From: Solirubrobacterales bacterium
GTDB lineage: Bacteria; Actinomycetota; Thermoleophilia; Solirubrobacterales; 70-9
DNA: 32,255 nt
Assembly (NCBI GenBank): GCA_035566275.1
Contig: DATMRN010000212.1
Span: forward strand, 1-32,255
Reading direction: 5' to 3'
The position numbers were made by a program, and so were the translations under genes. The stretch's first letter is position 1. Each line of letters opens with the position of its first letter. Below, piece by piece: positions 1,875-25,157 of this stretch. A model generated the notes under the pieces. The model was given only the letters and a program-made list of their open reading frames with translations. It had not been told where the DNA came from and searched no databases.

Positions 1875-2564
1875 GTGGCCTCCGGTAGACGCGCAGCCAA
1901 GGTGAATGAGCGGCTGCCGCGAGGGAGACACGGCTTGCCGCGGGAGGCGGTGACCGAGTCCCAGCGCAACCGCATCCACCAGGCGATGATCGAAGTCGTC
2001 TCCGAGCGGGGCTACCCCGATACGCGCGTGGTCGACGTGATCGGCGTCGCGGGAGTGTCGAGAAAGACGTTTTACGAGCTGTTCGACAGCAAGGAAGACT
2101 GCTTCCTGGCCGCCTACGACGTGCTGCTGGGGAATCTGCTGAGCGACACGGCCGGGGGCTTCGAGTCGAAGCCCGGGGCGCCCTGGGCGGAGCGCGTGGC
2201 GGCGGGCCTGGGGGCGCTTCTCGATCACCTGGCCGAGCACCCCGACGAGGGGCGGTTCGCGATCGTCGAGGTGCTGGCGGCGGGGCCGAAGGCGCTGGCG
2301 CGCCGGGACGCGGCGCTGCGGCAGTTCACCGGGTTCCTCGATGCCGGGCGCGCGGAGACCTCGGTGGAGCTGCCCGGGATCACCTCGCTGTCGCTGGCCG
2401 GCGGGATCAACGAGCTGCTCTACAGCGAGATCCTGCACGGGGCTGCGGCGCGGCTGCCGAGCCGGCTGCCGGACCTGATGTTCTGGGTGACGCTGCCGTT
2501 CCTGGGGGCCGAGGGAGCCGCCGCGGAGCGCGAGCGGACCCGGCTTTCGATGCTGGAGCGCTAG
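1875..2564 (+). CDS. TetR/AcrR-family transcriptional regulator
   Basis: 229-aa ORF with an N-terminal TetR helix-turn-helix (SQRNRIHQAMIEVVSERGYPDTRVVDVIGVAGVSRKTFYELFDSKEDCFLAAYD). Start is uncertain: GTG 1875 or GTG 1902. Confidence 0.85.
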   Translation: MASGRRAAKVNERLPRGRHGLPREAVTESQRNRIHQAMIEVVSERGYPDTRVVDVIGVAGVSRKTFYELFDSKEDCFLAAYDVLLGNLLSDTAGGFESKPGAPWAERVAAGLGALLDHLAEHPDEGRFAIVEVLAAGPKALARRDAALRQFTGFLDAGRAETSVELPGITSLSLAGGINELLYSEILHGAAARLPSRLPDLMFWVTLPFLGAEGAAAERERTRLSMLER

Positions 2565-2711: not shown

Positions 2712-3470
2712 ATGCGCAAGCATTTGACGTTGATATTCGCTCTGGGGGCCGTGATCGCGGTCACCGTGGCCGGAGTGGCGCTCGCCGCCGGCGAAAAGCC
2801 GGAAGTCATCCGGTTCGGGAACCTGGTCTTTACGATCAACGGCGGGGTCACGCCGAAGGCGCTGCCGAAGAACAAATTTGCGCCGATCAAGCTGAACGTG
2901 AGCGGCGGGATCGCCACCGTCGACGGCTCCCAGCCGCCGGCCCTGAAGGAAGTCATCGTCGACACCGACAAGAACGGCATGATCGAACCCAAGGGCGTGC
3001 CGACCTGCACATCCGGCAAGCTCCAGGCGCAGGACACCAAGCACGCCGAAGCTGCCTGCAGGAGCGCCATCGTCGGCAAGGGCAAAACCACGGTGCGCGT
3101 CGCGTTCCCCGAATCGACGCCGTTCAACGCCACCGGACCGCTGGTCGTCTTCAACGGCGGCCTCAAGGGCGGCGTGACGACGCTGTTCATCCATGCCTAC
3201 GTGGCCGTGCCGACCCCGACCGCGATCGTCACCACGGTCAAGATCACGAAGGAGCACAAGGGTCGCTTCGGCACGCACTCGGTCGCTTCGGTTCCGGTGA
3301 TCGCCGGCGGCAGCGGTTCGCCGACCAGCTTCAGCCTCGCCATCAACAGGCCGGGCTACCTGCTGGCCAAATGCCCCACCGGTAACTTCGTCGCCCAGGC
3401 TGAAGCCATTTTCCGCGACGGGACCAAGGTCAAGGGCGGCATCGTCCGCAAGTGCACGCCGAAGGGCTGA
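2712..3470 (+). CDS. secreted 4-Cys protein of unknown function, paralog A of a three-member family
   Basis: Track ORF 2664..3470. Preferred start is ATG 2712, because MRKHLTLIFALGAVIAVTVAGVALA is a Sec-type signal peptide and AAGGAG lies at 2694-2699. The mature part is beta-strand-like with 4 Cys. It is clearly homologous to 18628..19383 and 14392..15171 (blocks LPxKxFAPI, DGSxPxxLxEVxxDxD, KGVPTC, ACRxAIVGxG, VFNG, AGGxG, C-terminal C). Confidence 0.8.
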   Translation: MRKHLTLIFALGAVIAVTVAGVALAAGEKPEVIRFGNLVFTINGGVTPKALPKNKFAPIKLNVSGGIATVDGSQPPALKEVIVDTDKNGMIEPKGVPTCTSGKLQAQDTKHAEAACRSAIVGKGKTTVRVAFPESTPFNATGPLVVFNGGLKGGVTTLFIHAYVAVPTPTAIVTTVKITKEHKGRFGTHSVASVPVIAGGSGSPTSFSLAINRPGYLLAKCPTGNFVAQAEAIFRDGTKVKGGIVRKCTPKG

Positions 3471-3496: not shown

Positions 3497-3525
3497 GGGA
3501 GGCGCGGCGGAAAGTCGCGCCTCCC
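3497..3525 (+). terminator. GC-rich hairpin 27 nt after the paralog A stop (candidate intrinsic terminator)
   Basis: GGGAGGCGCG (3497-3506) pairs perfectly with CGCGCCTCCC (3516-3525), with a 9-nt loop. It is followed by AAGTCTTTCC, so there is no clean U-tract. Confidence 0.4.
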
Positions 3526-3553
3526 AAGTCTTTCCTCAGGACAGGCAAGGGAC

Positions 3554-3584
3554 AAGAAGGGCGGCCAAACGGGCCGCCCTTCTT
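3554..3584 (+). terminator. 13-bp perfect hairpin (candidate intrinsic, possibly bidirectional, terminator)
   Basis: AAGAAGGGCGGCC (3554-3566) pairs with GGCCGCCCTTCTT (3572-3584), with a 5-nt loop. The A-rich 5-prime arm and CUUCUU 3-prime arm resemble terminator A/U tracts. Confidence 0.45.
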
Positions 3585-3648
3585 CATGCCCGGAAACCGG
3601 GCGTTCGGCTTCCGCGATCATCCTGACCGAGCGTGACGACGAGCGCTG

Positions 3649-3949
3649 ATGCTCTACCTCGACGCGAGCGCGCTCGTCAAGCGCTACGTCGAGGAGGAGG
3701 GAAGCGAGGTCGTGCTGGAGGCGATGGATACTTACTGCGAACGCTTGGTCGATGTGCCGAATCGGCTATGCGGAGACAGTCCGCGCCGTCGCCCTGGCGG
3801 GAGGCCGAAGCGCCGTCAAGAGGGTCGAGCGAGACTGGCTCGCCTTCGACGTGATCGAGGTCGACCGCGCCGTCGCCGAGCACGCGGCGGAGCTGGCCCC
3901 TCTGCATGCGCGAGTTTGGCTCTTCTGGATGCCGCCATGGTCAACGTGA
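3649..3949 (+). pseudogene. degraded PIN-domain (VapC-like) toxin gene with at least two frameshifts and a lost 3-prime end
   Basis: Frame 1 starts with MLYLDASALVKRYVEEEGSEVVLEAMD, a typical PIN N-terminus with the first acidic residue. The continuation ILTANAWSMCRIGYAETVRAVALAGG...VERDWLAFDVIEVDRAVAEHAAELA is in frame 2, so the first shift lies near 3727-3735. A possible LALLDAAMV (conserved Asp block) is back in frame 1 from about 3916. No recognisable PIN C-terminus follows, and GC content drops at about 3950. Confidence 0.55.
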
Positions 3950-3967
3950 TGACCCAATGCAGCCCTG

Positions 3968-4612
3968 TTACCGCAGCGTCAGTGTGTCTGGCGGTTCAGT
4001 ACCCGCGTCCCGAATTGTAAAGACGTTATTGGCGACCCGCGCTGTCGCCACGGCTCCGTGGGTGTGCACCAGCGCCTTGTGGACTCGATCAGGAACCACT
4101 CCGACAATGAGTCGGGTGCCACGCATGCCTTGCGGACCTACTTCAGGAAGTGAGGTTACGGCGACTCCGCTTGCGAGGGCCTGCCTTGTAGTTGCACACG
4201 TTGCGCTTGCAATACGAAGGCTTATTTGCTCCACAATGCAAAGATGTCCGTTCCCGGGAACGGCCCAAAAGTCACGGTGTGCGGCTACAGGCAGTCGATG
4301 AGCGAGCGACCAGTTCATGCCCTGAACGGGTCTTCGCAAGAGCCTTGTTACCTTAACAGGGAGATCCTCGGGAGGTGTGCGAAGTAATGCAAAATTCGCA
4401 ACTTGCTGCGGTTCTACGTATTGGACCACGGCGACTGAGATGGGACTCCCCTTTGTGGAGTTGCTAGGTCGCAGATAGGTCGCATGGTTTAGCGCTGTCG
4501 TTGGCGGCTGGCTGTCCCACAGGATCCACCAGAGACCGAAAGTGCCGATGAGAACCGACGCAAGCAGGCCGGCACCGAGGCGCCGGCCTGCTTGCGAGTA
4601 AACCTTATCCAT
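3968..4612 (-). CDS. hypothetical membrane-anchored protein (single N-terminal TM)
   Basis: 214-aa ORF in the low-GC insert. The N-terminus MDKVYSQAGRRLGAGLLASVLIGTFGLWWILW is a signal-anchor. I recognise no family motif. The SD is weak. Confidence 0.6.
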   Translation of the reverse strand: MDKVYSQAGRRLGAGLLASVLIGTFGLWWILWDSQPPTTALNHATYLRPSNSTKGSPISVAVVQYVEPQQVANFALLRTPPEDLPVKVTRLLRRPVQGMNWSLAHRLPVAAHRDFWAVPGNGHLCIVEQISLRIASATCATTRQALASGVAVTSLPEVGPQGMRGTRLIVGVVPDRVHKALVHTHGAVATARVANNVFTIRDAGTEPPDTLTLR

Positions 4613-4655
4613 AGCGCAGCATCAACCTTGCGTGATTGATTTAGCTGAGCGGCTG

Positions 4656-5084
4656 CTACCAGATTTCCTTGCCGCTGATGTGGGCACTGGCGCCGGTGGT
4701 GTTGTTTCGAACGATCCCCTTCAAATTTCGTTCGTAACCGAGGTAGAGAAATTGTTCGCCTTCGGGGCCGAAGGTACAATGCCAAGAGGTGACAAGTCCT
4801 TCCGATGTGTTGAGTGCGTCTACACAAGCGCTGTGCTCATGGGAATATACCCACACACCGCCAAGGAATGCCCGCACCGTCGACTTGCATCGGTCTCCAG
4901 CCTGCCCGTACGGCGCAGCCCAGTAGTTGGTGCAGAAGTTTTGTTCGATAGCACTGGCTTTCGAAATAGGTCCGGCCGAGAGCCAGATGGATGTGAGCAG
5001 AGCGAACATGCAGGTAGTAAGCAACAGTACTCGAGTTGTACCCTTTCCACCAGCGAACGCTCCGTATGTCTGCGTTCTACTCAT
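4656..5084 (-). CDS. hypothetical small secreted Cys-containing protein
   Basis: 142-aa ORF. AGGAG (complement of 5091-5095) lies 6 nt upstream of ATG 5084. Signal peptide TRVLLLTTCMFALLTSIWLSAGPISKASA, then a ~97-aa mature part with 4 Cys. Codon usage is atypical for this window. Confidence 0.7.
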   Translation of the reverse strand: MSRTQTYGAFAGGKGTTRVLLLTTCMFALLTSIWLSAGPISKASAIEQNFCTNYWAAPYGQAGDRCKSTVRAFLGGVWVYSHEHSACVDALNTSEGLVTSWHCTFGPEGEQFLYLGYERNLKGIVRNNTTGASAHISGKEIW

Positions 5085-5134
5085 TTCGTTCTCCTAGTGA
5101 TAGATGGTTAACACGTCGATCAGGTTGTGGGAGA

Positions 5135-5164
5135 ACTCTAAAATGTTCTAAAGAACTTTTGCAA
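5135..5164 (-). promoter_or_regulatory. candidate sigma-70-type promoter for 4656..5084
   Basis: On the minus strand: TTGCAA (5164-5159), an 18-nt spacer, then TAGAGT (5140-5135), about 50 nt upstream of ATG 5084. The spacer contains the inverted repeat GTTCT-N2-AGAAC (5145-5156). Confidence 0.35.
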
Positions 5165-5422
5165 GTCGAGTGGACGGATGGTTGATGTCACCCGAAAGGA
5201 AGTTTGATGCTGGTCAACGTCAACCTTCCTCGCCGCACTGGCCGCATCTATGAGACCTTTATGACCACGGACTTCTGATCAGGCCAATGGAGAGACGGAG
5301 GCAGGGTAGTCGCTCGCAGACGTATGCTTGTACGAACAATCCCGGGGCGAGGAGGCTACGAAGTACTGGATTTATGCCGGCCACCGCCGGCCCTACCCCG
5401 CCCCCACGACAGACGCTGATTC

Positions 5423-6976
5423 CTACTTGCCCTGCTGTTCGAAGGCGTGCTGGTAGGTGGTGGGGGAGCCGGGTTTGCCGATCGGGTTGAAGGGGGCCTG
5501 CTGGGTGCAGCCCGGAGCTGGGAGCGTAGCGGTGTTGGTCTGTTCGGCGAAGGCGTATTTCTTGAGGCGGTTAAAGAAGTCGGTAGCTTTTTTGACATCG
5601 CCTTCGGTGCGTTCGTTGAAGGCGGGTTCGTTGGGGGTGTTGGGGTTGAGCGAGGCGGTGACCCCGGAGCTGCACTGGCGGGTCTCGAAGCTGGGCAGCC
5701 CGCTGGCGACGTTGTTTGCAAAGAGCGGCTGGCTGTAGGCGCTGGCCCGGTTGGTGGTGAGGCGGCGCTTGAAGGTGGAAAGCGCTTCCGGGTTGAGCGG
5801 CCCCATCGCACGCAAGTAGTGGATCTTTTCGCCTTTTTCGTTTTCGATCGGCAGGACCGCGTGGCTCGCCGCGGCCAAATTGGCCATCACCCCGGTGATC
5901 TCGTGCTTGTAGAGACCGAGGCCGGCGAGGATCGGGTTGAGGTTGCGCAGGAAGGGGTCGAGTGCGCGCAGGAACGGCGGGAACTGGTCGCGGAAGAGCT
6001 TGCGCAGGGCCGGGAAGGCGGTCGGGGCGCGGGCGATCACCGGGGCGAGGCCTTCGAAGAAGCCCTTCGCCTGCGGGGCCAGGTTGGAGAAGGCGATCAG
6101 GGTCGGGGAAAGCTGTTCGGCGGCGGGGACGAGCTGGCGCATCAGCGGGTCGGCGTCGAGCGCGAAGGTTTTGAGGCGGGCCAGGGTCGCCTTCGACTCG
6201 TCGAGGAAGGTCGGGAAGGCGCGGAAGAGAGCTTCGATGTCGCGGTCGCGCCGGGCGGTGGTCTGGAAGACCGTGTTGGAGTTGCGGATCAGGCTGGCCA
6301 GCTCTCCCTGGCGGCCGCGCAGCGCCTCCAGGGCGACGGCGCCGTTGCTGAACAGCTGGCGGACCGCGAGGCGCTGGGTGTCGAGGACGCGGAAGAGCCG
6401 GTCGAATTCGGTGAAGGTCGGGTTGAGCTCGCCCAGCGCGGTGGAAAACGCTTCGCCCTGGCCGCCGATCGCGACGGCGGCTTCCTGCTGCCAGGACTGG
6501 AAGGCGGCGCGCGTCTTGGCGTTGAAGGTGCGGAAGATCTCGTCGAGCTGGACCGACTGGGCGACGTGCGCGGTGGGCAGGGTGGCTCCGTCGGCGAGCT
6601 TCGGGCCGTTGCGGTCGCCGGGAGTGAGTTCGACGTAGGTCTCGCCGAGCAGGGTCTTGGTGCGGAGGATCGCCCGCGTCGACTCCGGCAGCGGCGCGTA
6701 CTTGTCGTCGATTTCGAGCGTCGCCAGCGCCTGCTTGCGGTTCGGCGCCAGAGCGATGTCGTGGACTTTGCCGATGTTGACGCCGGAGACCCGCACGTCG
6801 GACTGTTCGGCGAGCTGGGTCGCCTCGTCGAAGGGGACCTTGACCTCGTAGGATTTCGCCTTGAACGGGGTCGGCCCGCCGAAGGTGACCCAAAGGAAGA
6901 GCAGGATGCCGAAGCAGGACAGCGCGAAGCCGGCGATGACGAGGAGCTGGGTTGTGCTGGGCGCGCGCTTGCTCAT
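5423..6976 (-). CDS. Mce-family protein, 6th of six
   Basis: 517 aa. ATGA overlap at 6973-6976. TM LLVIAGFALSCFGILLFLWV, then an MCE domain (YEVKVPFDEATQLAEQSDVRVSGVNIGKVHDI...LRTKTLLGETYVELTPG). Confidence 0.93.
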   Translation of the reverse strand: MSKRAPSTTQLLVIAGFALSCFGILLFLWVTFGGPTPFKAKSYEVKVPFDEATQLAEQSDVRVSGVNIGKVHDIALAPNRKQALATLEIDDKYAPLPESTRAILRTKTLLGETYVELTPGDRNGPKLADGATLPTAHVAQSVQLDEIFRTFNAKTRAAFQSWQQEAAVAIGGQGEAFSTALGELNPTFTEFDRLFRVLDTQRLAVRQLFSNGAVALEALRGRQGELASLIRNSNTVFQTTARRDRDIEALFRAFPTFLDESKATLARLKTFALDADPLMRQLVPAAEQLSPTLIAFSNLAPQAKGFFEGLAPVIARAPTAFPALRKLFRDQFPPFLRALDPFLRNLNPILAGLGLYKHEITGVMANLAAASHAVLPIENEKGEKIHYLRAMGPLNPEALSTFKRRLTTNRASAYSQPLFANNVASGLPSFETRQCSSGVTASLNPNTPNEPAFNERTEGDVKKATDFFNRLKKYAFAEQTNTATLPAPGCTQQAPFNPIGKPGSPTTYQHAFEQQGK

Positions 6977-8388
6977 AGGTGAGAGTGGGGCCCGCAGCCG
7001 GAGCCCGGTATTTCGGGATCTGCAGGGATTTCGGGTAGGTCTTTGGGGCGCGGAACGCGGGCGGCTTGGAGGAGCGTCTTGAGGAACGGCCTGACTTCGG
7101 CGAATCCGTAGGCGAGATTGGAGGCGTTGCAGGAAATCATGACGAGGCCGCGCTGTACCGGACCGCCTGCGTCCTGCAGGTTGAAGTCGGCGTTGAGGTC
7201 GTGGTTTAGCCAGGGCAGGTAGAAGAGGTAGCTCTGCTTCGAGCCCTTCGGCTTGAAGGCAAGCTCGTTAAAGAAGGTGTTGAGGCCGCCCAGCGATTCG
7301 CCGAAGCCGGTCACCGTCTTCTTCAGCGCGCCGGAGCCTTCGTTGGCGTGGGTGAGCACTGGGCGGATCTGGCGGGTGAAGGGCCGGATCTGGTCGCGGA
7401 TCGGCGCCGTGGTCTGCTTGAAGAAGCGCTCGGTGGCGGCGAAGGCCGGGGTCAGCGCCTGCGCCTGCGGGATCAGGCCGAAGAGGGCCGGACGGGCGAC
7501 GGTGGAGAAGCGGTTGGAGCTGGCGAGGCCGGCCTTCGCGACCTGGAGGGTGGCCGGGAATTCGCGCAAGGCGGCCTGGATCGATTCCTGCTGGTTGGCG
7601 AAGTTGCCCAGCGCGGCGTTCGAGGAGGTGACGAAGCGCCGGATCTCGGAGTCGTGGCGGCCCAGTTCGGTGGTGAGCAGAGAGAAGTCGTGGATCGCCC
7701 GGGCGAGCGCGACGTGGCGTTTGGCGACGGCGCCGTTGAGTTTGGCGATGTAGTGGGCAAAGGGCTGGAGGCGACGGAAGGCGCCGGAGAGCTGGCGCCC
7801 GTGGCCGCCGATCCCCTGGGCGCCGCCGGCGAGCAGCAGCTGCAGGTACTGGCGGGTGTCGCCGTCGAGGGTGGCGAGGAACTGATCGAAGTTGACGTTC
7901 GGTTCGGTGCGGGAGAGGGGGATGTTGGCGCCGTTTTCGATATGTCCCCTGCCGCTCCCCGGGTCGACCTCGACCACCATGTCGTTGAGGTTGGTCTTCG
8001 GCCGCAGCAGCAGGGTCGCGTTGTGGTGGATCAGCTGCATGTACTTGGGCACGATTTCCATGCCGACGACGGCGTGGCCGTCTTCGAGGTTGACCGAGGC
8101 GACTTTGCCGATCTGGATACCGGCGATGTCGACCGCCTGGCCCTGCCCGGGGGTGACCGCCTGCGCGGTTGTGAACTCGGCGCTGATGTGCTCATAGGTT
8201 TCGCCGACGAAGGGCAGCCAGGAGGGCAGCGAGGCCTTTTGCTGGATGAAGATGCCGAGCATCATCGCGATGCCGAGCACGGTGAGGACGACGATCGCGA
8301 TCGTGTCTTTGCCACGGCCGCGGGCCTGGCGGCCGAGCGAGGCGCGGAAGTGCTTGAAGCGGCTTTTCTCGGGGGCGTTCTCGCTCAT
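6973..8388 (-). CDS. Mce-family protein, 5th of six
   Basis: 471 aa. ATGA overlap at 8385-8388. TM IAIVVLTVLGIAMMLGIFI, then an MCE domain (ISAEFTTAQAVTPGQGQAVDIAGIQIGKVASV...LRPKTNLNDMVVEVDPG). Confidence 0.92.
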   Translation of the reverse strand: MSENAPEKSRFKHFRASLGRQARGRGKDTIAIVVLTVLGIAMMLGIFIQQKASLPSWLPFVGETYEHISAEFTTAQAVTPGQGQAVDIAGIQIGKVASVNLEDGHAVVGMEIVPKYMQLIHHNATLLLRPKTNLNDMVVEVDPGSGRGHIENGANIPLSRTEPNVNFDQFLATLDGDTRQYLQLLLAGGAQGIGGHGRQLSGAFRRLQPFAHYIAKLNGAVAKRHVALARAIHDFSLLTTELGRHDSEIRRFVTSSNAALGNFANQQESIQAALREFPATLQVAKAGLASSNRFSTVARPALFGLIPQAQALTPAFAATERFFKQTTAPIRDQIRPFTRQIRPVLTHANEGSGALKKTVTGFGESLGGLNTFFNELAFKPKGSKQSYLFYLPWLNHDLNADFNLQDAGGPVQRGLVMISCNASNLAYGFAEVRPFLKTLLQAARVPRPKDLPEIPADPEIPGSGCGPHSHL

Positions 8389-9893
8389 GGGCTGATCGCC
8401 GCAGGATCGGGGGGACCGACCTGTCCCAGCGGCCCGTTGACGTCGGGGACGGGGTTCGTGTAGCAGCGCACGCTCGGCTTAATCGGTGGGCGGCCGCCGA
8501 GCTGCGGCTGGGTGCCAAGGGGGGCATCGATCGAATACCCCCAATTGCTTTTCTCGTTTATCAGGTTGCCCTTTGGATTCGGTTCGGTAACCAACTGTGG
8601 ACCGCCCCCTGCCTGAAGCCTCAGGTAGGGGCCATTGCCGTCGAAGGTCTGCCCAGCGCCGGCGAAGTTGCTGAGGGCGTAGAAGAATTCGCGGTAGTTG
8701 GGACCGCCGGTGCTGAAGCGGTCGGCGATCGTCTGGTTGCCGGTCGGCACCAGCACCTTGGTCGTGCAGAGGCTGAGCTGGTTGAGTTGCGGCAGGGCGC
8801 TGGCCTTGCCGGCCTGGGCGGCGCCGGCGAAGCCGGGGGTCAATTCGCGCAGCAGCCTCGCGGTGCCGCCCGCCTCCTTGCCGGAGAGCAGCGGGCGGGC
8901 CTGCTTCAGCCACGGTTTGGAGGCGCTGATCAGCCCCGGCAGCTCGGCGACCGCGGGGGTCAGCTCGATCGCGTAGGTGCGCAGCGGCGGCAGCGAACGG
9001 TTGAGGCTGACCAGCGAGGCGCGGGCGGTCTTCAGGAACGGCGCGAAGCGGTGCACCGTGACCGCGAGGTTGGCCGACTGGGCGGCGAGAGCGCCGGTGA
9101 AGATCTCGAAGTTGTCGATCAGGCCCTTGAGGTCGCTCTCGCGGCTGGCGAAGGCGCCGAAGGTGCGCCCGGCGCCGGCGACCAGGCGGGAGAGGTCGTG
9201 CTGCTGAGTGCCAAGCAGGGCATTGGTTACCTGGGCGCTGTAGCGGCTGGCCGGGCCGCCGTATTTGAGGGCGCCGTTGAGGCCTTCCGCCCCGGTCTTG
9301 CCCTGGACTTCGGGGAGCTGGGTGGCGTCTTCGGCCGCACTCGGCTTGTGGGTGAGCGCTTCGCCGTAGCTCTCCAGCAGGCGGCTGAGGTCGGCGCGGA
9401 CCGGGGACTGCAGCGCCGTGAGGATCTCGTCGAGCTGGACCGCGGTGGAAGTGTGGCTGACCGGGATCGTCGCCCCGCTGGACATTTCCGGGGCGCTGGG
9501 GCTGCCGGGGTCGAGTTCGACGAAGAAGTTGCCCTCGAGGAAGATCCGCGGGCGGATCTCGGCGAAGGCGTCGGAGTGGATCGGCCGGCCGGCGCTTTCG
9601 ACCGTGAAGGTGACGTCGGTGTTGTTGCCGTCGCGGCTGGTCGAGACCACCCGGCCGACTTCGACCCCGGCGATCCGCACCGGCGAGTTGAGGGCGATGT
9701 TGGCCGAGTTGGAGAAGGTCGCCTTCAGCTCGTACCCGTAGCTGGTGAAGGGGACGTGCCCGGTGAAGGCAAGGTAGGGCCCGATCGTGAAGATGAGGAT
9801 GAAGATCACCGCGATCAGGGCGTTGCTGGGTCGCCACTTGAAGCGGCGGTCGGTGGCGCCCTGCCTGGTGTCGCGCTCGGGGAGGCGGCTCAC
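8385..9893 (-). CDS. Mce-family protein, 4th of six
   Basis: This is the C-terminal 502 codons of track ORF 8385..11492. GTG 9893 forms GTGA with the upstream stop (9890-9893) and is preceded by GGAGG 6 nt upstream. TM ALIAVIFILIFTIGPYLAF, then an MCE domain (YELKATFSNSANIALNSPVRIAGVEVGRVVST...IRPRIFLEGNFFVELDPG). Confidence 0.9.
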   Translation of the reverse strand: MSRLPERDTRQGATDRRFKWRPSNALIAVIFILIFTIGPYLAFTGHVPFTSYGYELKATFSNSANIALNSPVRIAGVEVGRVVSTSRDGNNTDVTFTVESAGRPIHSDAFAEIRPRIFLEGNFFVELDPGSPSAPEMSSGATIPVSHTSTAVQLDEILTALQSPVRADLSRLLESYGEALTHKPSAAEDATQLPEVQGKTGAEGLNGALKYGGPASRYSAQVTNALLGTQQHDLSRLVAGAGRTFGAFASRESDLKGLIDNFEIFTGALAAQSANLAVTVHRFAPFLKTARASLVSLNRSLPPLRTYAIELTPAVAELPGLISASKPWLKQARPLLSGKEAGGTARLLRELTPGFAGAAQAGKASALPQLNQLSLCTTKVLVPTGNQTIADRFSTGGPNYREFFYALSNFAGAGQTFDGNGPYLRLQAGGGPQLVTEPNPKGNLINEKSNWGYSIDAPLGTQPQLGGRPPIKPSVRCYTNPVPDVNGPLGQVGPPDPAAISP

Positions 9894-11317
9894 TTGCTTC
9901 CTCCCTGACCCTTCAGCTGACCGGAGGTCTTTGTGCCGTGATTGCCCGGGACGTTGCCGATCACGGTCTGGCCAGCCTTGTAGCGAACGTTGCCCGCTTC
10001 GCACTCGTGTGGCTGGCCCGGAGATGCGGTGTTCGGGTATGGGTTGTAATGGAGGTGGTTTTTGACTTCGGGGCCATTGGCTGGAGCAGACGATGGTCCG
10101 CTCTCGGCATTCGGGCCTTCGGGCGGCGTGAAGGAGATGAAGTTGAGCCAGTTGCCCAAGCCATTGCCTCTTTCGGTGGCGCTGGCGAGGTTCCTGAAGG
10201 CGAGGGTGAGGTAATTGCAGGTGGTCTGGGCCGGCGCGATGAACTTGATCGCCGGGCCGAGGGTGTGGTTGGTGTCGATCAGCAGGTCGAGCCCGTTGAA
10301 GACCCCCGGCGCGTTCTGGAAGGCGAGCAGCGCGTCGGCGGTCGGCGGCAGCTGGGCGTTGAGGACCGGCGAGGCGTTGAGGACGGGGATGCCGGCATGC
10401 AGGGCGGCGGCGATCGTCGGCGAGGTTTCGGCGAGGGCGTGGGCGCCGGGCTTCAGCGCCGTGAAGAAGCGCTGCGAGTCGTGCAGGAAGGGCCGCAGGA
10501 CGGGCAGGTCGGCGTTGGCGGCGTCCAGGGTCGGTGGGCTCTTGGAGATCGTTTCCTGGATGAATGGCCGCGAGACGCGGGCAAAGGCGGCGAAGGTGCG
10601 GTCGAGGGCGGCGAAGAGGCTGGCCTGGGTCTCGGCCACCGGCGCGACGGTCGCCGAGAGGTCCTCGAGCGCCCGCCAGAAGCCGCCGAAGTTGGTCTGC
10701 GGGGCGACGATCGTGCGCAGCACCGGCTGGGCGCTGACCACCAGCCGCCGCAGGGAGCCGAACGCTTCGTTGATCTGCGGTCCGCGGCCGGCCAGCGCGT
10801 TGCCGAAGCCGGCCAGGTTGCGGCGGATCGCCACCCGGGTCTTTTCGTCGAACATACCGAAGAACTGGTCGATGTCGACCGGTTCGGGGCGCGCCGCGGA
10901 GACCGGGATCGTTTCGCCCGCGGCGAAGCCCTTGCGGGAGTTTCCGGGGACGATCTGCAGGTACTTGAGGCCGAGCGCCGACTTCGGCCGGATTATCATC
11001 GTCGAGTCGCTGGGGAGCGGTTCGACGCTCTTGTCGAGGCTGAGCGAGAGCTTGGCGGCGACGCTGCCGTCGCTGCGTTGGACGGGGACGACCGACTTGA
11101 CGATGCCGACCCGGACGCCGCCGATCCGCACCTCGTTGCCCTTGACCAGCGCGTCGGCGTTGGGAACTTCGGCGTTGAGGTTGTAGGTGGAGACGAAGGG
11201 CAGCCCGTTGTTGGCGTTGTAGGCGAGGAAGACGGCGACGATTACGACCAGCACGGTGACCGCCCCGACCAGGATCGGGCTGCTCGCGACGCCTGTCAGT
11301 CCCCTGCGGTTCCTCAT
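9890..11317 (-). CDS. Mce-family protein, 3rd of six
   Basis: 475 aa. ATGA overlap with the upstream gene (11314-11317). TM ILVGAVTVLVVIVAVFLAY, then an MCE domain (YNLNAEVPNADALVKGNEVRIGGVRVGIVKSV...IRPKSALGLKYLQIVPG). Confidence 0.93.
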   Translation of the reverse strand: MRNRRGLTGVASSPILVGAVTVLVVIVAVFLAYNANNGLPFVSTYNLNAEVPNADALVKGNEVRIGGVRVGIVKSVVPVQRSDGSVAAKLSLSLDKSVEPLPSDSTMIIRPKSALGLKYLQIVPGNSRKGFAAGETIPVSAARPEPVDIDQFFGMFDEKTRVAIRRNLAGFGNALAGRGPQINEAFGSLRRLVVSAQPVLRTIVAPQTNFGGFWRALEDLSATVAPVAETQASLFAALDRTFAAFARVSRPFIQETISKSPPTLDAANADLPVLRPFLHDSQRFFTALKPGAHALAETSPTIAAALHAGIPVLNASPVLNAQLPPTADALLAFQNAPGVFNGLDLLIDTNHTLGPAIKFIAPAQTTCNYLTLAFRNLASATERGNGLGNWLNFISFTPPEGPNAESGPSSAPANGPEVKNHLHYNPYPNTASPGQPHECEAGNVRYKAGQTVIGNVPGNHGTKTSGQLKGQGGSK

Positions 11318-12801
11318 GGCGCCAGCAGGTAGTTGAGAAGTGGGGCGGTGCCCCCGGTCTTGGCGCCGGGGCCAGGCCCACCAGCCTGGCCGGCCTTGGG
11401 CGACGGCGACGATTCTGACGCGGAGGCGCCGGCACCAGTCCCACCGGTCTGGCCTTCGAGCTGGTGCTCGAGGCGGCGGTAGAGGTCGGCACTGCTGATC
11501 GTCGCCGATGTGACAGCGCCTTCGCCAGTGAAGTTAGCTACGCAGCCACTTTCGGGCTGGACCACATAGTCGACACAGTTGGTCAATGTGACCAGGGTCC
11601 GACCGAAGTGCCCGTACTGGTCGAAGCCGTTGAGGGTCGCGGTGGTGTTGTAGATCAGGTCGACCAGGCCGTTCCAGCCTCCGGTCTTTTCGATGTTGAC
11701 GAAGAACTTGGCGAGGTTCGTGGTCGGGCCGGCGCCGCTCTTGGCTAATTCAGTCGTCTTGCGGACGATCGGGTCGGCTTCGCGCAGCTTCGGGCCGGCG
11801 ATCGCGCCGCTGGCGCCGAGGCTCTTCAGCGCCACGGTCGAGGCGGCGGAGAACGGGGTCAGGGCCCTGGTCGCGTCGGTCAGCGACGGCGCCGCCTTGC
11901 CGAAGTCGGCGAAGACCGGGGTGGCGGCGTCGGAGAAGCCCTGGAGGCTGTGCATCGTCAACCGGAACTGGCGCAGGAAGCGCGGGAACTTGCGCAGCGA
12001 CGCTTCCAGTTCCGGCCCCCGTTCGGAGCTGGCCTGCCCGGCGGCGCCGGCGTTGGCGAAGAAGCCGGCGACGTGCGCGCGCACGCGCGAGAACGGCCGG
12101 AGGATTTCCTCGGAGTTGCTGGCCAGCTTGGCGAGCTGGTTGCGCTGGGCGGAGAGGATGGCGAACAGGCGATCGACGTCGCGCAGCACCGGGTTGGCCC
12201 GCTTGACGACTTCTTCGATGTCCTTGCCGCGCCCGGCCAACCCAGCGCCGAGTTCGTTGAGGATGAGGCGGAAGCGCTGCGCGTAGGGAAGGGTTTGGAT
12301 GTCGTTGATCAGGTCGGGGTCGACGCTGGTGCTGTTGTTCTCCACCGGCAGCAGGTACTGCCCGGCGCCGGGCTGGCCGGAGGGGATCTTTTTCAGCGAC
12401 GGCGCCGGCTGGGAACCAGGGGCGCGGGGCAGGGTCGGGTTGCAATCGATGAACTTCTCGCCGATCAGCGACTGGGGGCGGATCAGGCAGCCGGCGTCGC
12501 TGCGGAAGTCCTGGAAGCCGGGGTTGGTGATTTCCATGACGATGATCGCTTTGCCGGGGATCGCCTGTGGCTTGCCGTTCTTGTAGCTGTCGATCTCACC
12601 CGGCATCGAAACGCCCACCGACTTGATTTCGCCGACGTTCGCCCCGGCGACGCGGACCTGCTCGCCCGAGACCATGAAGGAACCGTTGTCGAAGACGGCG
12701 CGGACGAGATAGGCGCTGTTGCCGCCCCCGGAGGAGGAGACCAGCACGATCGCCACCACGACCGCGGCCACCAGAGCGCCGATGATCAGCCCTCTTCTCA
12801 T
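11314..12801 (-). CDS. Mce-family protein, 2nd of six
   Basis: Track ORF 11314..12831. Preferred start is ATG 12801, which forms ATGA with the upstream stop at 12798-12801; ATG 12831 is the alternative. TM LIIGALVAAVVVAIVLV, then an MCE domain (YLVRAVFDNGSFMVSGEQVRVAGANVGEIKSV...IRPQSLIGEKFIDCNP). Gly/Pro/Ala-rich C-terminal tail. Confidence 0.9.
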   Translation of the reverse strand: MRRGLIIGALVAAVVVAIVLVSSSGGGNSAYLVRAVFDNGSFMVSGEQVRVAGANVGEIKSVGVSMPGEIDSYKNGKPQAIPGKAIIVMEITNPGFQDFRSDAGCLIRPQSLIGEKFIDCNPTLPRAPGSQPAPSLKKIPSGQPGAGQYLLPVENNSTSVDPDLINDIQTLPYAQRFRLILNELGAGLAGRGKDIEEVVKRANPVLRDVDRLFAILSAQRNQLAKLASNSEEILRPFSRVRAHVAGFFANAGAAGQASSERGPELEASLRKFPRFLRQFRLTMHSLQGFSDAATPVFADFGKAAPSLTDATRALTPFSAASTVALKSLGASGAIAGPKLREADPIVRKTTELAKSGAGPTTNLAKFFVNIEKTGGWNGLVDLIYNTTATLNGFDQYGHFGRTLVTLTNCVDYVVQPESGCVANFTGEGAVTSATISSADLYRRLEHQLEGQTGGTGAGASASESSPSPKAGQAGGPGPGAKTGGTAPLLNYLLAP

Positions 12802-14204
12802 GGGCCCGGTGGTGCGTCGGCGGGGTTGCATTCGGACGGGGAAACGCCGGCGCCGCCCAGGGGCGGGTCGACGAAGGGGTTGGAGTGGTCAGGAGCGGAC
12901 TGGGTGGCGCCGCCGGGGCAACGGCGGTGGATTCCGGCCGAGGAGCCGAAGGCTTCGAACTGCTGGCTCGGTTTGATCGGTTCCAGCGAGCCGCTGCCGC
13001 TGTTGTAGTTGAAGAGATTGAGGTCGGCCAGCGCCCCGCGGACGTAGTTGCCGTTGCCGTCGTAGTACCCGGAGACCTGGCCGAGCTTGCCGAACCCGTT
13101 GAAGATGTCAGGCGTGTAGGCCCGGGCGAAGTCGAGGTTCGGCTGGAAGGCGGCGATCGCCTGCTGGGAGTTGGGGAAGGCCCTGGCGGCGCGCTGCTGG
13201 ACGGTGGGCAGCGCGGCGAGCAGTTCGCCCGCGTCGTTGGCCTTGCCGGGCTTGCGCACCGTGAATCGCAGGTTTTCGAAGAGGGGGACCGCTTTGGAGA
13301 GGACCGGGCGGAGTTCGGCGAGGAAGGGAGCCAGGTTCTTGGTCGCCGGCTTCGCCGTGTCGACCAGCGGTTCGAGGTCGCCGAGGGCGGCGCGGAGGTT
13401 GACGAAGGTGGTGTTGCTCTGGCGCAGGACGGGGGGCAGCCGCCGCAGGGTCTGGTCGAGGGCGACGTTCTGGGTGGAGATCGCGCCGAAGGCGGTGTTG
13501 GCGTTGGCGATCGCGCTGGAGAGCTGGCCGCCGCGTTCCGACACCGCGGTGGCGAGCCTGCTGGAGCTGACGATGAAGCGCTGGAAGAGGTTCTGGTCGG
13601 CGTTCAGCTCGTGTGTGAAGGCGGCGGTGCGGTTGAGCGCCGGGCCGAAGTACTTGTAGGTCTGGTTCGCCTGGTGGCCGACGCCGGCGTAGATTTCCGA
13701 GTTGCCCTGGATGAACTGGCTGAGCCCGCGGCGCACCCCGGGCGGGAAAGTGTTGAAGAGCTGGTCGATGTCGACCGGCGTCGTGGTCGAGGCGAGCCCG
13801 AGGGTGGCGCCTTCTTCCAGCGCCGGGTTGCTGTTGGGGCCGGGGCTGACCGAGACGTAGTGGTTGGCGACCCCGGAGAGCGAGGTGGCGCGGATCACCG
13901 CGGTGCTTCCCTCGTGAAGCTGCTGTTCCACTTCGACGTGGACGCTGGCAAGGTTGTTTTCGGTCAGTTCGATGTTTTCGACCGAGCCGACCGGCGAGCC
14001 GCCGATCAGGACCTGGTTTTCGGGGACGAGCTGTCCGGCGTTCTGGAAGAGGAGGTCGTACTTGTAGCCGCCGTTGCCGCTGAACAGGACGACGGCGAGC
14101 GCGACGACCACGATCGCGAGGGCAGCGACGACGGCGATGCGGGCGGGGGAGAGCCCCCGGCTGGGCGCCGGGCTTTTCTCCTCGCCTAAGGGATTGGCAG
14201 CCAC
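12798..14204 (-). CDS. Mce-family protein (MCE/MlaD domain), 1st of six
   Basis: 468 aa with a GTG start. N-terminal TM IAVVAALAIVVVALAVVLF, then an MCE domain (YKYDLLFQNAGQLVPENQVLIGGSPVGSVENIEL...IRATSLSGVANHYVSVSPG) and a long helical region. Exactly 2 Cys, both in the last 45 aa. Confidence 0.92.
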   Translation of the reverse strand: MAANPLGEEKSPAPSRGLSPARIAVVAALAIVVVALAVVLFSGNGGYKYDLLFQNAGQLVPENQVLIGGSPVGSVENIELTENNLASVHVEVEQQLHEGSTAVIRATSLSGVANHYVSVSPGPNSNPALEEGATLGLASTTTPVDIDQLFNTFPPGVRRGLSQFIQGNSEIYAGVGHQANQTYKYFGPALNRTAAFTHELNADQNLFQRFIVSSSRLATAVSERGGQLSSAIANANTAFGAISTQNVALDQTLRRLPPVLRQSNTTFVNLRAALGDLEPLVDTAKPATKNLAPFLAELRPVLSKAVPLFENLRFTVRKPGKANDAGELLAALPTVQQRAARAFPNSQQAIAAFQPNLDFARAYTPDIFNGFGKLGQVSGYYDGNGNYVRGALADLNLFNYNSGSGSLEPIKPSQQFEAFGSSAGIHRRCPGGATQSAPDHSNPFVDPPLGGAGVSPSECNPADAPPGP

Positions 14205-14359
14205 GGATCGTCGCTTGCGGTTCCCCGGCCTCCGACCCGGAAGAACGGCGCCGGAATCGTATCCGAGCCATCCCCGGACAAGCGCGCGCCACGCAGGGAC
14301 TTAACTGGAATTCAACGCGCTACTCTGGACCCGCGGGACGGTTATGGCACTGGGAGGCG

Positions 14360-14378
14360 CTTTGGCCAAAGTTCGAAC
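14360..14378. promoter_or_regulatory. two abutting perfect palindromes, CTTTGGCCAAAG and GTTCGAAC, just upstream of the paralog B ribosome-binding site (candidate operator)
   Basis: CTTTGGCCAAAG at 14360-14371 and GTTCGAAC at 14371-14378. SD GGAG is at 14382-14385 and ATG at 14392. The site lies in the 187-nt divergent region shared with the mce operon. Confidence 0.3.
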
Positions 14379-14391
14379 AGAGGAGTAGCCA

Positions 14392-15171
14392 ATGCGCAAA
14401 CGTCCAACCGCGATCGTGGGCTTGGCGGTAGCCATAGCCACAGCGATCGTTGCCTCGGCCGCGATCGCCGGCCCCACCGTTTCCGGCCCGGACGGCAACA
14501 CGCAGGCGATCGACGTCAAGCTGTCGCCGACGAAGCTCTCGAAGAGCATGCAGACCCCCGTCACGTTGAACGTGACCACGAAAACGACCACCACGACGGC
14601 TGCGAACGGGGTGCCGGTGCCGGCGGTCCAGGCGATCGTCGACTTCGACAAGAACACGAAGCTCTTCACCAAGGGCGTCCCCACCTGCGACGCCGCCAAG
14701 CTGCAGAGCACCTCGACCGAAATCGCCCTTCGCGAATGCGGCAAGGCGATGATCGGCGGCGGCAAAGCGACGGCGCTGATCCCGGTCGGCGAAAAAGTCT
14801 TCCCCGAGCCGACGACGGTGACGGCATTCAACGGTGTGCCGCAGGGCGGCAAGCCGGTGGTCCTGCTGCACACCTACGGCGTCTCGCCGGTGCAGACGAC
14901 GATCGTGCTTAACGGCGTCGTCACCAACCTCAACAAAGAAGGCTACGGCCCCCGCCTGACCGTAAGCATCCCGCTGCTGGCCGGCGGAACCGGCGCCCTG
15001 ACCGACTTCCAGACGTCGATCGGCAAGAAGTTCACCTACAAGGGCAAGAAGCGCAGCTACGTCAGCGCCGAATGCAAGAAGTCGCCGCTGAAAGCGCGTG
15101 GCAAATTCGTCTTCAAAGACGGTGAATCCCTGACCGCGTTCTCGACCCAGGGGTGCACGAAGAAGAAATAG
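14392..15171 (+). CDS. secreted 4-Cys protein of unknown function, paralog B
   Basis: 259 aa with a good SD. Signal peptide MRKRPTAIVGLAVAIATAIVASAAIA. Shares KGVPTC, ECGKAMIGGG, AFNGVPQGG, IPLLAGGTGALT and KKRSYVSAECK...ARGKFVFKDG...GC with paralog C, and most of these blocks with paralog A. Thr-rich stretch TTKTTTTTA. Confidence 0.85.
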   Translation: MRKRPTAIVGLAVAIATAIVASAAIAGPTVSGPDGNTQAIDVKLSPTKLSKSMQTPVTLNVTTKTTTTTAANGVPVPAVQAIVDFDKNTKLFTKGVPTCDAAKLQSTSTEIALRECGKAMIGGGKATALIPVGEKVFPEPTTVTAFNGVPQGGKPVVLLHTYGVSPVQTTIVLNGVVTNLNKEGYGPRLTVSIPLLAGGTGALTDFQTSIGKKFTYKGKKRSYVSAECKKSPLKARGKFVFKDGESLTAFSTQGCTKKK

Positions 15172-23565: not shown

Positions 23566-24267
23566 TTAGTTGAGTGAGGAGAGGAAGTCAGCTAGCTCGT
23601 TGAGCTTTTTCGGCGGCAGTTCGCGGAAGGAGGGCATGATACCCGGCCCTATTTCCACCGAGCGGATGATCGCCGCACGCGGGATCCGCCGGGCGATGTG
23701 GGTCAGTTCGGGTCCGGGACCGTTGTTGCCGTTGTCGCCGATTTTGTGGCAGGCGAGGCAGCCCGAGCCGGCGACGACCTCCTTGCCGGCTTGGTATTGA
23801 GGCGCGACCTTGAGGTCGATTTCGGTGGGGGAGCCGGCGACGGCGCCGGAGTAGGTGAGGTAGCCCATCGCGAGGATGGTCAGGACGGCGGCTGTCATCG
23901 CGATCGGCCGCCGCTCCGGCCGCCGCTCCGGCCCGCGGTCGTAGAAGGGCAGGAGGAGGAGGAGGACCATGCAGACGGTCGGGATCCCTATCGTCGCGAT
24001 CGGGACCAGTTCCGGGGGCTTGATCACCCGCAGGACCTCGAAGAGGAAGAAGAAGTACCACTCGGGCCGCGGCACGTAGCTGGTCGTGGTCGGGTCCGCC
24101 TTCGGCCCCTGCTCGGCGCCGAGGACGATCGACATCAGGATGATCACGCCGACGACGATCAGCGCCATCGTCGAGTCCTTCAGCACCGCGTAGGGGAAGA
24201 AGGGCTTCCCCTTCTTCTTGAGCACCTCGTACTCCTCGAGGTACGCCTGCTTGTCGCGTGCCTTCAT
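23566..24267 (-). CDS. qcrC: menaquinol-cytochrome c reductase QcrC-type subunit (cytochrome b subunit IV fused to a mono-haem cytochrome c)
   Basis: This is the C-terminal 233 codons of track ORF 23566..24738. ATG 24267 forms ATGA with the qcrB stop (24264-24267). It contains the PEWYFFFLFEVLR subunit-IV motif, three TM segments, then CLACH haem-c binding and a distal MPSF. Confidence 0.85.
   Translation of the reverse strand: MKARDKQAYLEEYEVLKKKGKPFFPYAVLKDSTMALIVVGVIILMSIVLGAEQGPKADPTTTSYVPRPEWYFFFLFEVLRVIKPPELVPIATIGIPTVCMVLLLLLPFYDRGPERRPERRPIAMTAAVLTILAMGYLTYSGAVAGSPTEIDLKVAPQYQAGKEVVAGSGCLACHKIGDNGNNGPGPELTHIARRIPRAAIIRSVEIGPGIMPSFRELPPKKLNELADFLSSLN
23905..23928. repeat. perfect 12-nt tandem duplication (CGGCCGCCGCTC x2 plus a partial third copy) inside qcrC
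   Basis: Copy 1 is at 23905-23916 and copy 2 at 23917-23928, followed by CGGCC. The duplication is in frame and encodes PERRPERRP in the loop after the subunit-IV helices. Confidence 0.9.
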
Positions 24268-25157
24268 CGGGCTGGAGACGCTCCGTTGCCCCCGACCCCG
24301 GCGTCGAGCTGGGAGACCGGCTCGGCGACCTTCGGCCGCTCCGCCCTGACCCACGGCGGCGCCGTGGTGCCGAGCTTGACGACCAGGTAGAGGTGGGCGC
24401 CGATCAGGGCGATGATCGCGCCGGGGAGGAGCAGCATGTGGATCGAGTAGAAGCGGGCCAGAGTCGTCGCGCCGAACTCGGGCCCGGCGCGCAGGAAGTC
24501 GCTCAGGTAGGGGCCGACGATCGGCCCGGTCCCGTTGATGTTGATGCCGACGACCGAGGCCCAGAAGGAGCGCTGGTCGAAGGGCAGCAGGTAGCCGGTG
24601 AAGGCCATCGTCATGGTCAGGATCAGCAGCACGACCCCGATCACCCAGTTCAGCTCGCGCGGGTACTTGTAGGCGCCGAAGAAGAAGGTGCGGCCCATGT
24701 GGACGAAGACGAGGATGACCATCACGCTCGCCCCCCACTTGTGCATCCCGTGCACGAACTGGCCGAGGAAGACGTCGTTGTTGATGTGGGAGATCGAGGC
24801 GTAGGCCTGGGTCGCCGAGGGCGTGTAGAACATCGCCAGGAAGACGCCGGTGACCGCCTGCACGATGAAGGCGAAGAGGGTGGCGGAGCCGAGCGTGTAG
24901 AACCAGTTGGTCCCCTTCGGCACCTTGCGGTAGAGCATCCCGGTGAGGAAGCCGGTGGCGCCGGTGCGCTGGTCGACCCAGGCGAGCACGTCGGCGGGGG
25001 CTTCCTTGGCTTTGTCGCCGAGCCGCTGGACGTCGGTCGGGCGCTCGGGCGGGGAGGTCTTGAGGTCGGCCGGCGCCCGGCCCTTGCCGTTGCCGCCCTC
25101 GCCCGGCTTGGCCGGCTTGCGGAGGGGGGCGGGAACGATCGAGCCTGGGATCTTCAT
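24264..25157 (-). CDS. qcrB: cytochrome b6-type subunit (N-terminal four-helix half of cytochrome b)
   Basis: 297 aa. WFYTLGSATLFAFIVQAVTGVFLAMFY, FVHGMHKWGASVMVILVFVHMGRTFFFGAY and TGYLLPFDQRSFWA motifs carry the haem-ligand His pairs. There is a ~60-aa Lys/Pro-rich N-terminal extension. Confidence 0.93.
   Translation of the reverse strand: MKIPGSIVPAPLRKPAKPGEGGNGKGRAPADLKTSPPERPTDVQRLGDKAKEAPADVLAWVDQRTGATGFLTGMLYRKVPKGTNWFYTLGSATLFAFIVQAVTGVFLAMFYTPSATQAYASISHINNDVFLGQFVHGMHKWGASVMVILVFVHMGRTFFFGAYKYPRELNWVIGVVLLILTMTMAFTGYLLPFDQRSFWASVVGININGTGPIVGPYLSDFLRAGPEFGATTLARFYSIHMLLLPGAIIALIGAHLYLVVKLGTTAPPWVRAERPKVAEPVSQLDAGVGGNGASPAR

Follow-up and report, generated by a model that had tools for sequence, protein, structure and literature searches.

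Exported four-cysteine proteins encoded beside mce and mmpL genes in Solirubrobacterales: a new family with a possible accessory role in lipid transport

Actinobacterial mce operons consist of two yrbE genes and six mce genes (PMC1810536). The Mas/Mam (Mce-associated membrane) proteins of Mycobacterium and other Actinomycetales possess an extracytoplasmic domain of ~160 amino acids (aa), predicted to be of the alpha1-4/beta1-4, NTF2-like type and usually anchored by an N-terminal membrane helix; they are typically encoded as pairs downstream of, and co-directional with, the mce genes, occur as orphan pairs elsewhere, and are needed for the stability of the Mce complex (PMC1810536; PMC13492129). 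MmpL transporters have companions of their own, namely the MmpS proteins (PF05423; partners of MmpL4/5-type pumps) and the LprG/LppX/LprA/LprF (PF07161) and LpqN-type lipoproteins of ~230 aa, which are proposed to be extracytoplasmic lipid-handling partners of MmpL-dependent export. MmpS proteins are comparatively short, membrane-anchored and usually encoded co-directionally upstream of mmpL. Here we report on three related genes, designated A, B and C, in a 32,255-nucleotide stretch of DNA from a Solirubrobacterales bacterium (contig DATMRN010000212.1; the whole stretch is referred to as the window), which stand beside six mce genes and a gene for an MMPL-family transporter. We suggest, tentatively and with somewhat less than even confidence, that their products are exported, probably disulfide-stabilised accessory proteins of this Mce/MmpL lipid-transport cluster.

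2712..3470, + strand: A, 252 aa, ATG start; member of the TetR-linked orthologue group, with a recent 8-residue deletion
14392..15171, + strand: B, 259 aa, ATG start; divergent from mceA, convergent with the MMPL gene
18628..19383, + strand: C, 251 aa, TTG start; divergent from the start of the MMPL gene

Like the MmpS proteins, the products of these genes are small, predicted to be extracytoplasmic and beta-rich, and encoded beside an mmpL-type gene. Unlike MmpS, they give no PF05423 match at E<=10 and are longer (~250 aa versus about 140 aa), and C is divergent from the MMPL gene. In size and in the function proposed for them they approach the LprG/LppX group, the members of which are lipoproteins with solved PDB structures; in contrast, A, B and C have no lipobox (C at best a poor version of one), no Pfam match and no sequence or fold match in the PDB. 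They also differ from the MCE/MlaD proteins in having no match to PF02470, the MlaD beta-barrel domain, which the products of the neighbouring genes do have.

Three paralogues and their relatives

A previous sequence-only reading of the window had described the three open reading frames as copies of one family, and we found all of them on the + strand exactly where that reading had placed them. A Shine-Dalgarno-like GGAG/GAGG motif lies 5' of each start codon. For A, the start at 2712 agrees with the N-termini of its orthologues and with the GGAG motif; the start at 2664 chosen by the gene caller would give a protein of 268 aa. Pairwise BLASTP comparison returned 97.8 bits and E 4e-29 for A-B (32% identity over 267 residues), 134 bits and E 4e-43 for A-C (33% over 257), and 129 bits and E 4e-41 for B-C (33% over 222). 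The relationship proposed by eye is thereby confirmed: the similarity is far beyond chance, and A, B and C are true paralogues. The blocks K/RG(V/L)PTC, xC(R/G)xA(I/M)(V/I)GxG, (V/A)FNG and (I/V)PxxA(G/A)GxG, all of which had been listed as shared, recur in the three-way alignment. The N-terminal blocks ascribed to A and C are likewise present, but the spacing written as 'GNLV..GG' has to be corrected, as four residues and not two separate its parts.

Two further statements of the sequence-only reading require more substantial revision. A block around the residues KRSY had been attributed to B and C only. It is indeed present in both, but the segment is also kept in 93 of 102 A-type orthologues. 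Residues 211-216 of the A protein in the window (3342..3359) read INRPGY, as opposed to a 14-residue segment such as IGKTFTYKGKKQSY in other A-type members, and the 8-residue loss is limited to the window copy and its closest relatives. The block thus appears to be an extra of B and C because A of the window lost eight residues there. This deletion also takes out a serine that is 85% conserved in the family (S215; glycine in the window copy). The view that B and C form the closest pair did not hold, since the bit score of A-C is at least as high as that of B-C, and the mean identity between the B and C subfamilies (30.0%) is the lowest of the three (A-B, 33.3%; A-C, 33.2%).

Database matches fall into three orthologue groups with 56-87% identity to A, 67-90% to B and 61-86% to C. 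Between these groups, identity amounts only to about 30-40%, and one member of each group is found together on the same contigs. From the high identity within groups, the low identity across them and their co-occurrence, it follows that the paralogy of A, B and C is ancient and that each of them has orthologues of its own.

To gauge the size of the family, a profile of A, B and C was used to score 8000 candidates in a word-indexed search; 2590 proved to be relatives, compared with 1637 found with C alone. An exhaustive hidden Markov model (HMM) search of 1.84 billion cluster representatives (50% identity) recovered 2806 clusters at E<=1e-3, of which 1879 were retained at E<=1e-10 and 775 at E<=1e-30. 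All of the relatives carry the source name 'hypothetical protein', and the named organisms are metagenome-assembled genomes (MAGs) of Solirubrobacterales. We also scanned one genome per species with C-type sequences; this yielded 161 relatives, and 80 loci (numbered with the prefix L) were kept, every one of which derives from MAGs of Solirubrobacterales, Conexibacteraceae or unclassified Actinomycetota/Actinomycetes. So far, the family is confined to Solirubrobacterales-type Actinomycetota. Nearly all members are 245-290 aa long, and among representatives the identity to A, B or C ranges from 30 to 66%. In addition, there are a few tandem fusions, 400-500 aa in length, in which two stretches match the family and the cysteines number about eight.

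Export, conserved residues and predicted fold

Export was judged by simple sequence rules on 377 members. A strongly hydrophobic 12-mer is located within the first 47 residues of 368 of them, preceded by K/R in 340, and a small-x-small site follows the N-terminal hydrophobic segment in 374. Tat-like N-termini are rare (4/377), none of the 377 sequences contains an LPXTG sortase signal, and a second, later hydrophobic 19-mer was found in only 11, so that 366 are without a later membrane segment. In A, the predicted signal peptide spans approximately residues 1-26 (MRKH...VALA, then AGEK) and is followed by the all-beta mature domain. Prediction by these rules supports export of the family proteins via the Sec pathway.

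The N-termini of A, B and C had been read as signal peptides without a lipobox, and this assessment stands for all three. A and B do not contain any N-terminal cysteine. The signal peptide of C (18628..18696) carries a cysteine within the hydrophobic stretch (VVVC); this motif does not satisfy the -1 rule of a lipobox, and the cysteine is followed by more hydrophobic residues and then by a standard site (ASA, then A). In the C-type members in general, the consensus likewise has a cysteine in the middle of the core, and a standard A-x-A site follows. Since 31 of the 377 sequences, mostly of the C type, do fit a lipobox pattern (L-T-A-C, L-I-A-C and similar), we considered membrane-tethered forms, in which an uncleaved N-terminal anchor, or a lipoprotein signal in the C type, would hold the domain beside the transporters. 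Given the features of the window C signal peptide and the N-termini of A and B, we regard such tethering as improbable.

Residue conservation was derived from the 377 aligned sequences and is given here in A numbering. Four cysteines had been described as invariant in the three copies; they are invariant in 59 diverse relatives, and C99, C116, C221 and C248 are conserved in 99-100% of the 377 sequences. Conservation of at least 95% was found for P48, L51, P58, G95, G122, G124, F147-N148-G149, P167, P195, G200 and G202. The number of cysteines is exactly four in 227 of 374 members and six in 52; in the six-cysteine proteins P0361 and P0378, the extra cysteines are close together, near the N-terminus, which fits sequential, local disulfides. 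Within the canonical set, C99 and C116 would pair around the only helix of the domain, and C221 and C248 at the C-terminal strands, giving two probable local disulfides. A mean-field direct-coupling analysis of the 377 sequences, directed at strand pairings and cysteine proximity, was discarded, as its top pairs were local (i/i+4) or artefacts of gap columns. The loop [DE]84-x-D86-[RK]-[ND]88-G89 is well conserved (87% for [DE]84, 96% for D86, 83% for [ND]88 and 75% for G89). It resembles the DxDxDG calcium loop (D-x-[DN]-x-[DN]-G), the side chains of which coordinate Ca2+, and may serve as a putative Ca2+-binding site, a resemblance that we note as a lead only.

The sequence-only reading could not place these ~250-aa exported proteins in any named domain family, and our searches of family and structure libraries bear this out. 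Scanning a 2025 copy of Pfam-A returned nothing for A or B at E<=10 and a single chance row for C (HCBP_related, 11.7 bits against a cut-off of 21.4); among 59 members, no Pfam-A family was matched by more than two at E<=1. NCBIfam release 20.0 gave one row only, a signal-anchor model for B (E 9.2, 6.4 bits), and the best E value in a sequence-profile search of the PDB was 0.13.

AlphaFold2 models were computed for A from an alignment of 59 sequences (predicted local distance difference test, pLDDT, 90.8; predicted template-modelling score, pTM, 0.84) and for mature C from 72 sequences (pLDDT 96.8; pTM 0.91). Both models are all-beta, with the same order of ~15 strands, several of them 10-15 residues long, and with one or two short helices between the first two cysteines. 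As modelled, the mature part folds into one compact, all-beta domain of ~225 residues. We took a Foldseek E<=1e-3 together with a template-modelling (TM) score of >=0.5 as a PDB fold match. Neither model gave any PDB match at E<=1e-3, the highest query TM score (TMq) being 0.39, and a viral structure library likewise yielded no match. The predicted domain is thus of the beta-sandwich type and has no recognisable solved relative.

The best, non-significant Foldseek rows were MSCRAMM adhesins, the p53 core and macroglobulin receptor-binding domains for the A model (TMq up to 0.28), and the hypothetical protein TTHA1873 (E 5e-3, TMq 0.34), the N-domain of the adhesin Sgo0707 (TMq 0.35-0.39), the pilins BcpA and CppA, and ClfA for the C model. 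Literature searches on TTHA1873, and on Solirubrobacterales in combination with Mce/MmpL, returned nothing relevant. The family shares with the Ig-like domains of these adhesins and pilins and with TTHA1873 an all-beta, sandwich-type architecture and export, at E values of 5e-3 to 9e-2, TMq 0.31-0.39, root-mean-square deviations of 7-11 A and a sequence identity of 7-10%. Unlike sortase-anchored adhesins and pilins, which have a CnaA/CnaB/DEv-IgG fold, it has neither LPXTG nor an isopeptide-type motif, and it adds two cysteine pairs.

These structural neighbours bring up another explanation, in which A, B and C would be beta-sandwich proteins of the cell surface or cell wall, with an adhesin-like, structural or ligand-capturing function and no direct part in Mce/MmpL transport; their neighbourhood would reflect a conserved chromosomal backbone and tandem duplication. 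The strong expansion and diversity of the family, including its tandem-fusion proteins, would suit surface proteins. The lack of a sortase signal or a wall-anchoring repeat argues against them, as does the weakness of every structural match (all Foldseek E >1e-3, TM <0.4). We consider this explanation, the main rival of the accessory role, possible but rather unlikely, and return to it below with the data on gene order.

The same material bears on the idea that the proteins are extracytoplasmic enzymes, that is, hydrolases or transferases acting on the envelope lipids or wall polymers handled by MmpL/Mce. Three polar residues are nearly invariant (D86 in 96%, N148 in 97% and H161 in 89% of the sequences), S215 is found in 85%, and neprosin, a glutamic peptidase, and the cyclase AvmM are among the weak Foldseek rows. 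However, the conserved positions are mostly Gly, Pro, Cys and Ala, A of the window has a glycine in place of S215, no enzyme family was found by sequence, and the enzyme rows reach TMq values of only 0.21-0.27 at E about 1e-2. Judged from the alignment, structural residues, rather than a catalytic constellation, make up most of the conserved set; an enzymatic function appears very unlikely to us.

Gene neighbourhood in the window and across genomes

In the window, which is high in GC (about 66-75%), the family genes are interspersed with the following features:

1875..2564, + strand: TetR-family regulator (PF00440), immediately upstream of A on the same strand
5423..14204, - strand: six consecutive MCE/MlaD-domain genes, mceA-F-like (PF02470, TIGR00996, gene calls of the parent contig)
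14205..14391: divergent intergenic region between mceA and B, 187 bp, with strongly conserved DNA
15184..18510, - strand: MMPL-family transporter of the resistance-nodulation-division (RND) type, 1108 aa, PF03176 at 1.4e-56, between B and C
18511..18627: divergent intergenic region between the MMPL gene and C, 117 bp

The overall order is purA, TetR, A, a stretch of lower GC with orphan reading frames, the six mce genes (-), B, MMPL (-) and C. The mce genes lie at approximately 12798-14204, 11314-12831, 9890-11317, 8385-9893, 6973-8388 and 5423-6976; A is convergent with this operon and B divergent from it. The stop codons of B and MMPL are 12 bp apart, and the NCBIfam MMPL/HAE3 models match the 15184..18510 protein below their equivalog cut-offs.

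The strongest argument for a functional link comes from a divergent lineage (L085, L087 and L089) in which the order is mceA-F, family gene, family gene, MMPL, with all genes on one strand. The family members of this lineage are only ~30-38% identical to A, B or C, its MMPL protein is 38% and the product of its last mce gene 51% identical to the respective window protein. The first family gene (264-282 aa) begins 6 bp after mceF in L085 and L089 and overlaps mceF by 4 bp in L087; the second encodes 281-320 aa. Three TetR genes adjoin the mce/family/MMPL cluster in L085. Hence, the same partners are kept together although their order and orientation differ, and the first family gene closely adjoins mceF. 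This retention of two family genes between mceF and MMPL also speaks against surface proteins that merely share the neighbourhood.

The counts across the 80 loci point in the same direction, although they are biased to the C-type context because only C-type sequences served as queries. At 75 of the 80 loci, the MMPL start and the first family gene are less than 700 bp apart and divergent, with a median gap of 268 bp. Two or three tandem C-like copies occupy the MMPL-divergent position at 22 loci; extra copies thus build up specifically between MMPL and C, which likewise speaks against the surface-protein explanation. A B-type gene (56-70% identity to B) is located between mceA and MMPL at 31 loci. 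A TetR gene with one, two or three A-type copies behind it is also found in L001, L092 and L094, in spite of rearrangements of the flanking genes relative to the window.

Several observations weigh against an accessory role. The main clade shows synteny throughout the region (rpsF-ssb-dnaB-purA ... tatC-menaquinone-cytochrome genes), so that mere adjacency carries little weight in this clade and may partly reflect inheritance. The paralogues may be close together simply through local duplication. The weak Foldseek neighbours are adhesins and pilins of Gram-positive bacteria and not lipid carriers. Moreover, some pairs of family genes have a context without mce or mmpL: the pair in L088 is accompanied by large proteins that lack annotation and by a Flg_new_2 protein, that in L090 by a PAS protein and that in L091 by a GDSL lipase. 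The synteny of the region in the main clade and the pairs far from mce/mmpL also count in favour of the surface-protein explanation.

Two of these loci share a second recurring context (L088 6684..8908, L091 822..3027), in which a gene for a 205-215 aa protein is followed by two tandem family genes with no mce or MMPL gene nearby; the L088 copy of this protein has an N-terminal hydrophobic, signal-like segment.

Comparison with Mas/Mam, including the orphan OmamA/B, reveals both parallels and differences. Family pairs follow mceF on the same strand in the divergent lineage, and tandem pairs or triplets are found elsewhere. These pairs, their position downstream of mce and the orphan pairs match the Mas pattern (PMC1810536), and we count this in favour of an accessory role. 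The convergent and divergent arrangement of A and B in the window departs from the Mas/Mam layout. So do the proteins themselves, with a domain of ~225 aa, an all-beta fold, four invariant cysteines and an apparently cleavable signal peptide. Since the fold is different, the family is to be viewed as a positional analogue of Mas/Mam and not as a homologue.

Neither the yrbE/mlaE permease (PF02405) nor the mceG/mlaF ATPase is encoded within 10 kb of the mce operon in the window, L002, L003, L085 or the parent contig upstream. Either the genes for the ATP-binding cassette (ABC) module are located elsewhere, or MMPL is the partner with which these Mce proteins act. A metagenome scan for the genes that precede mceA in the co-directional lineage gave one contig of 2.5 kb, from a 43%-identical relative, on which a gene for an MlaF-like ATPase abuts mceA; this says nothing about L085.

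The spacer between mceA and B is 183-200 bp long in the loci measured and shows 75% mean column identity in an alignment of 24 sequences; the B-type genes of 23 aligned spacer loci are only 56-70% identical to B at the protein level. It contains the nearly invariant stretch GACTTAACTGGAAnTCAACGCGCTACTCTG, a motif that is unique in the window, and on its mce side a conserved, hairpin-capable sequence, GGTTCCCCGG...CCGGnGGAAC. A structured leader RNA was considered and rejected, as RNAalifold predicted 25 pairs with 0 compensatory changes and a covariation term of +0.46, and Rfam gave no match. Since neither compensatory changes nor an Rfam match were found, we read the spacer as what is probably a shared promoter/operator. 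Two candidate regulatory sites were discarded as well: a TTTGGC...GCCAAA operator shared by the upstream regions of A and B is only partly conserved in B-type orthologues and is absent upstream of C, and the nearly invariant 17-mer TTAACTGGAATTCAACG, considered as a regulon-wide site, is present just once in the window.

Features further away from the family genes, or between them, are the following:

3968..4612: orphan reading frame, 214 aa, with an N-terminal hydrophobic segment
4656..5084: orphan reading frame, 142 aa, Cys-rich
19413..19486: tRNA-Lys(CTT), 30 bp after the stop codon of C
19498..20307, - strand: conserved protein of 269 aa; one membrane helix at the N-terminus, Lys/Ser-rich tail

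The stretch of approximately 3500..5400 between A and mceF is lower in GC (57-59% versus about 67%) and holds orphan reading frames without a family match. In L003, just 139 bp separate the A-type gene from mceF, and the stretch therefore looks like an insertion. Downstream of C, the window continues with tRNA-Lys, the 269-aa membrane protein, tatC and genes for menaquinone, cytochromes and haem. The 269-aa protein has no Pfam or NCBIfam match, and its gene is the immediate upstream neighbour of tatC at almost every related locus. In L005, L007, L036, L051, L052, L064, L080 and others, it is located together with tatC 2-8 kb further off, which suggests insertions at the point after C. Within the cytochrome genes, a cytochrome b C-terminal domain is fused to a c-type cytochrome domain in one gene (23566..24738, - strand). 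A duplicated NirDL-like/AsnC-type (siroheme decarboxylase-like) protein (27624..28820, - strand) is encoded between a class-III aminotransferase (hemL-like) and hemB, and its position among haem genes hints at a siroheme-dependent haem route. Approximately 3 kb upstream of window position 1, the parent contig (L092 6569..9253) carries, upstream of purA, a dnaB gene with an intein and a LAGLIDADG endonuclease domain.

Proposed role and significance

According to the accessory role that we favour tentatively, the family proteins would be accessory subunits, located outside the membrane, of the neighbouring Mce machinery, with its six MlaD-domain proteins, and of the MmpL (RND) transporter. They may hold or hand over hydrophobic cargo, or they may be responsible for the assembly and stability of those transporter parts that are extracytoplasmic. 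The groups could be specialised, with A under the control of a lipid-type TetR regulator, B allied with the mce operon and C with mmpL. Their role would be equivalent to that of Mas/Mam for mycobacterial Mce and to that of MmpS or LprG/LppX for MmpL, with an unrelated fold. In this role, the proteins would contact Mce/MmpL and may bind lipids. What is new, then, is the protein family and possibly its fold; the role proposed for it would be of a known kind.

A more far-reaching idea, which we regard as highly doubtful, is that of a composite machine in which the Mce heterohexamer would be served by a proton-driven MmpL (RND) transporter in place of the ABC module, with the family proteins bridging or capping both. 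It takes its origin from the lack of a YrbE/MlaE or MceG/MlaF gene near these mce operons. To our knowledge, the actinobacterial Mce systems described so far have both the YrbE/MlaE permease and the MceG/MlaF ATPase. Such a composite, if true, would represent a new architecture for lipid transport across the actinobacterial envelope.

Solirubrobacterales are abundant, mostly uncultured soil Actinomycetota, and the family studied here is among their large, lineage-specific sets of exported proteins. It is a clean candidate for a new domain family, possibly with a new fold. An accessory role would extend the idea of Mce-associated accessory proteins beyond Mas/Mam, and the pairing of the family with Mce and MmpL in two different gene arrangements provides a testable handle on the movement of lipids in the envelopes of non-mycolate actinobacteria.

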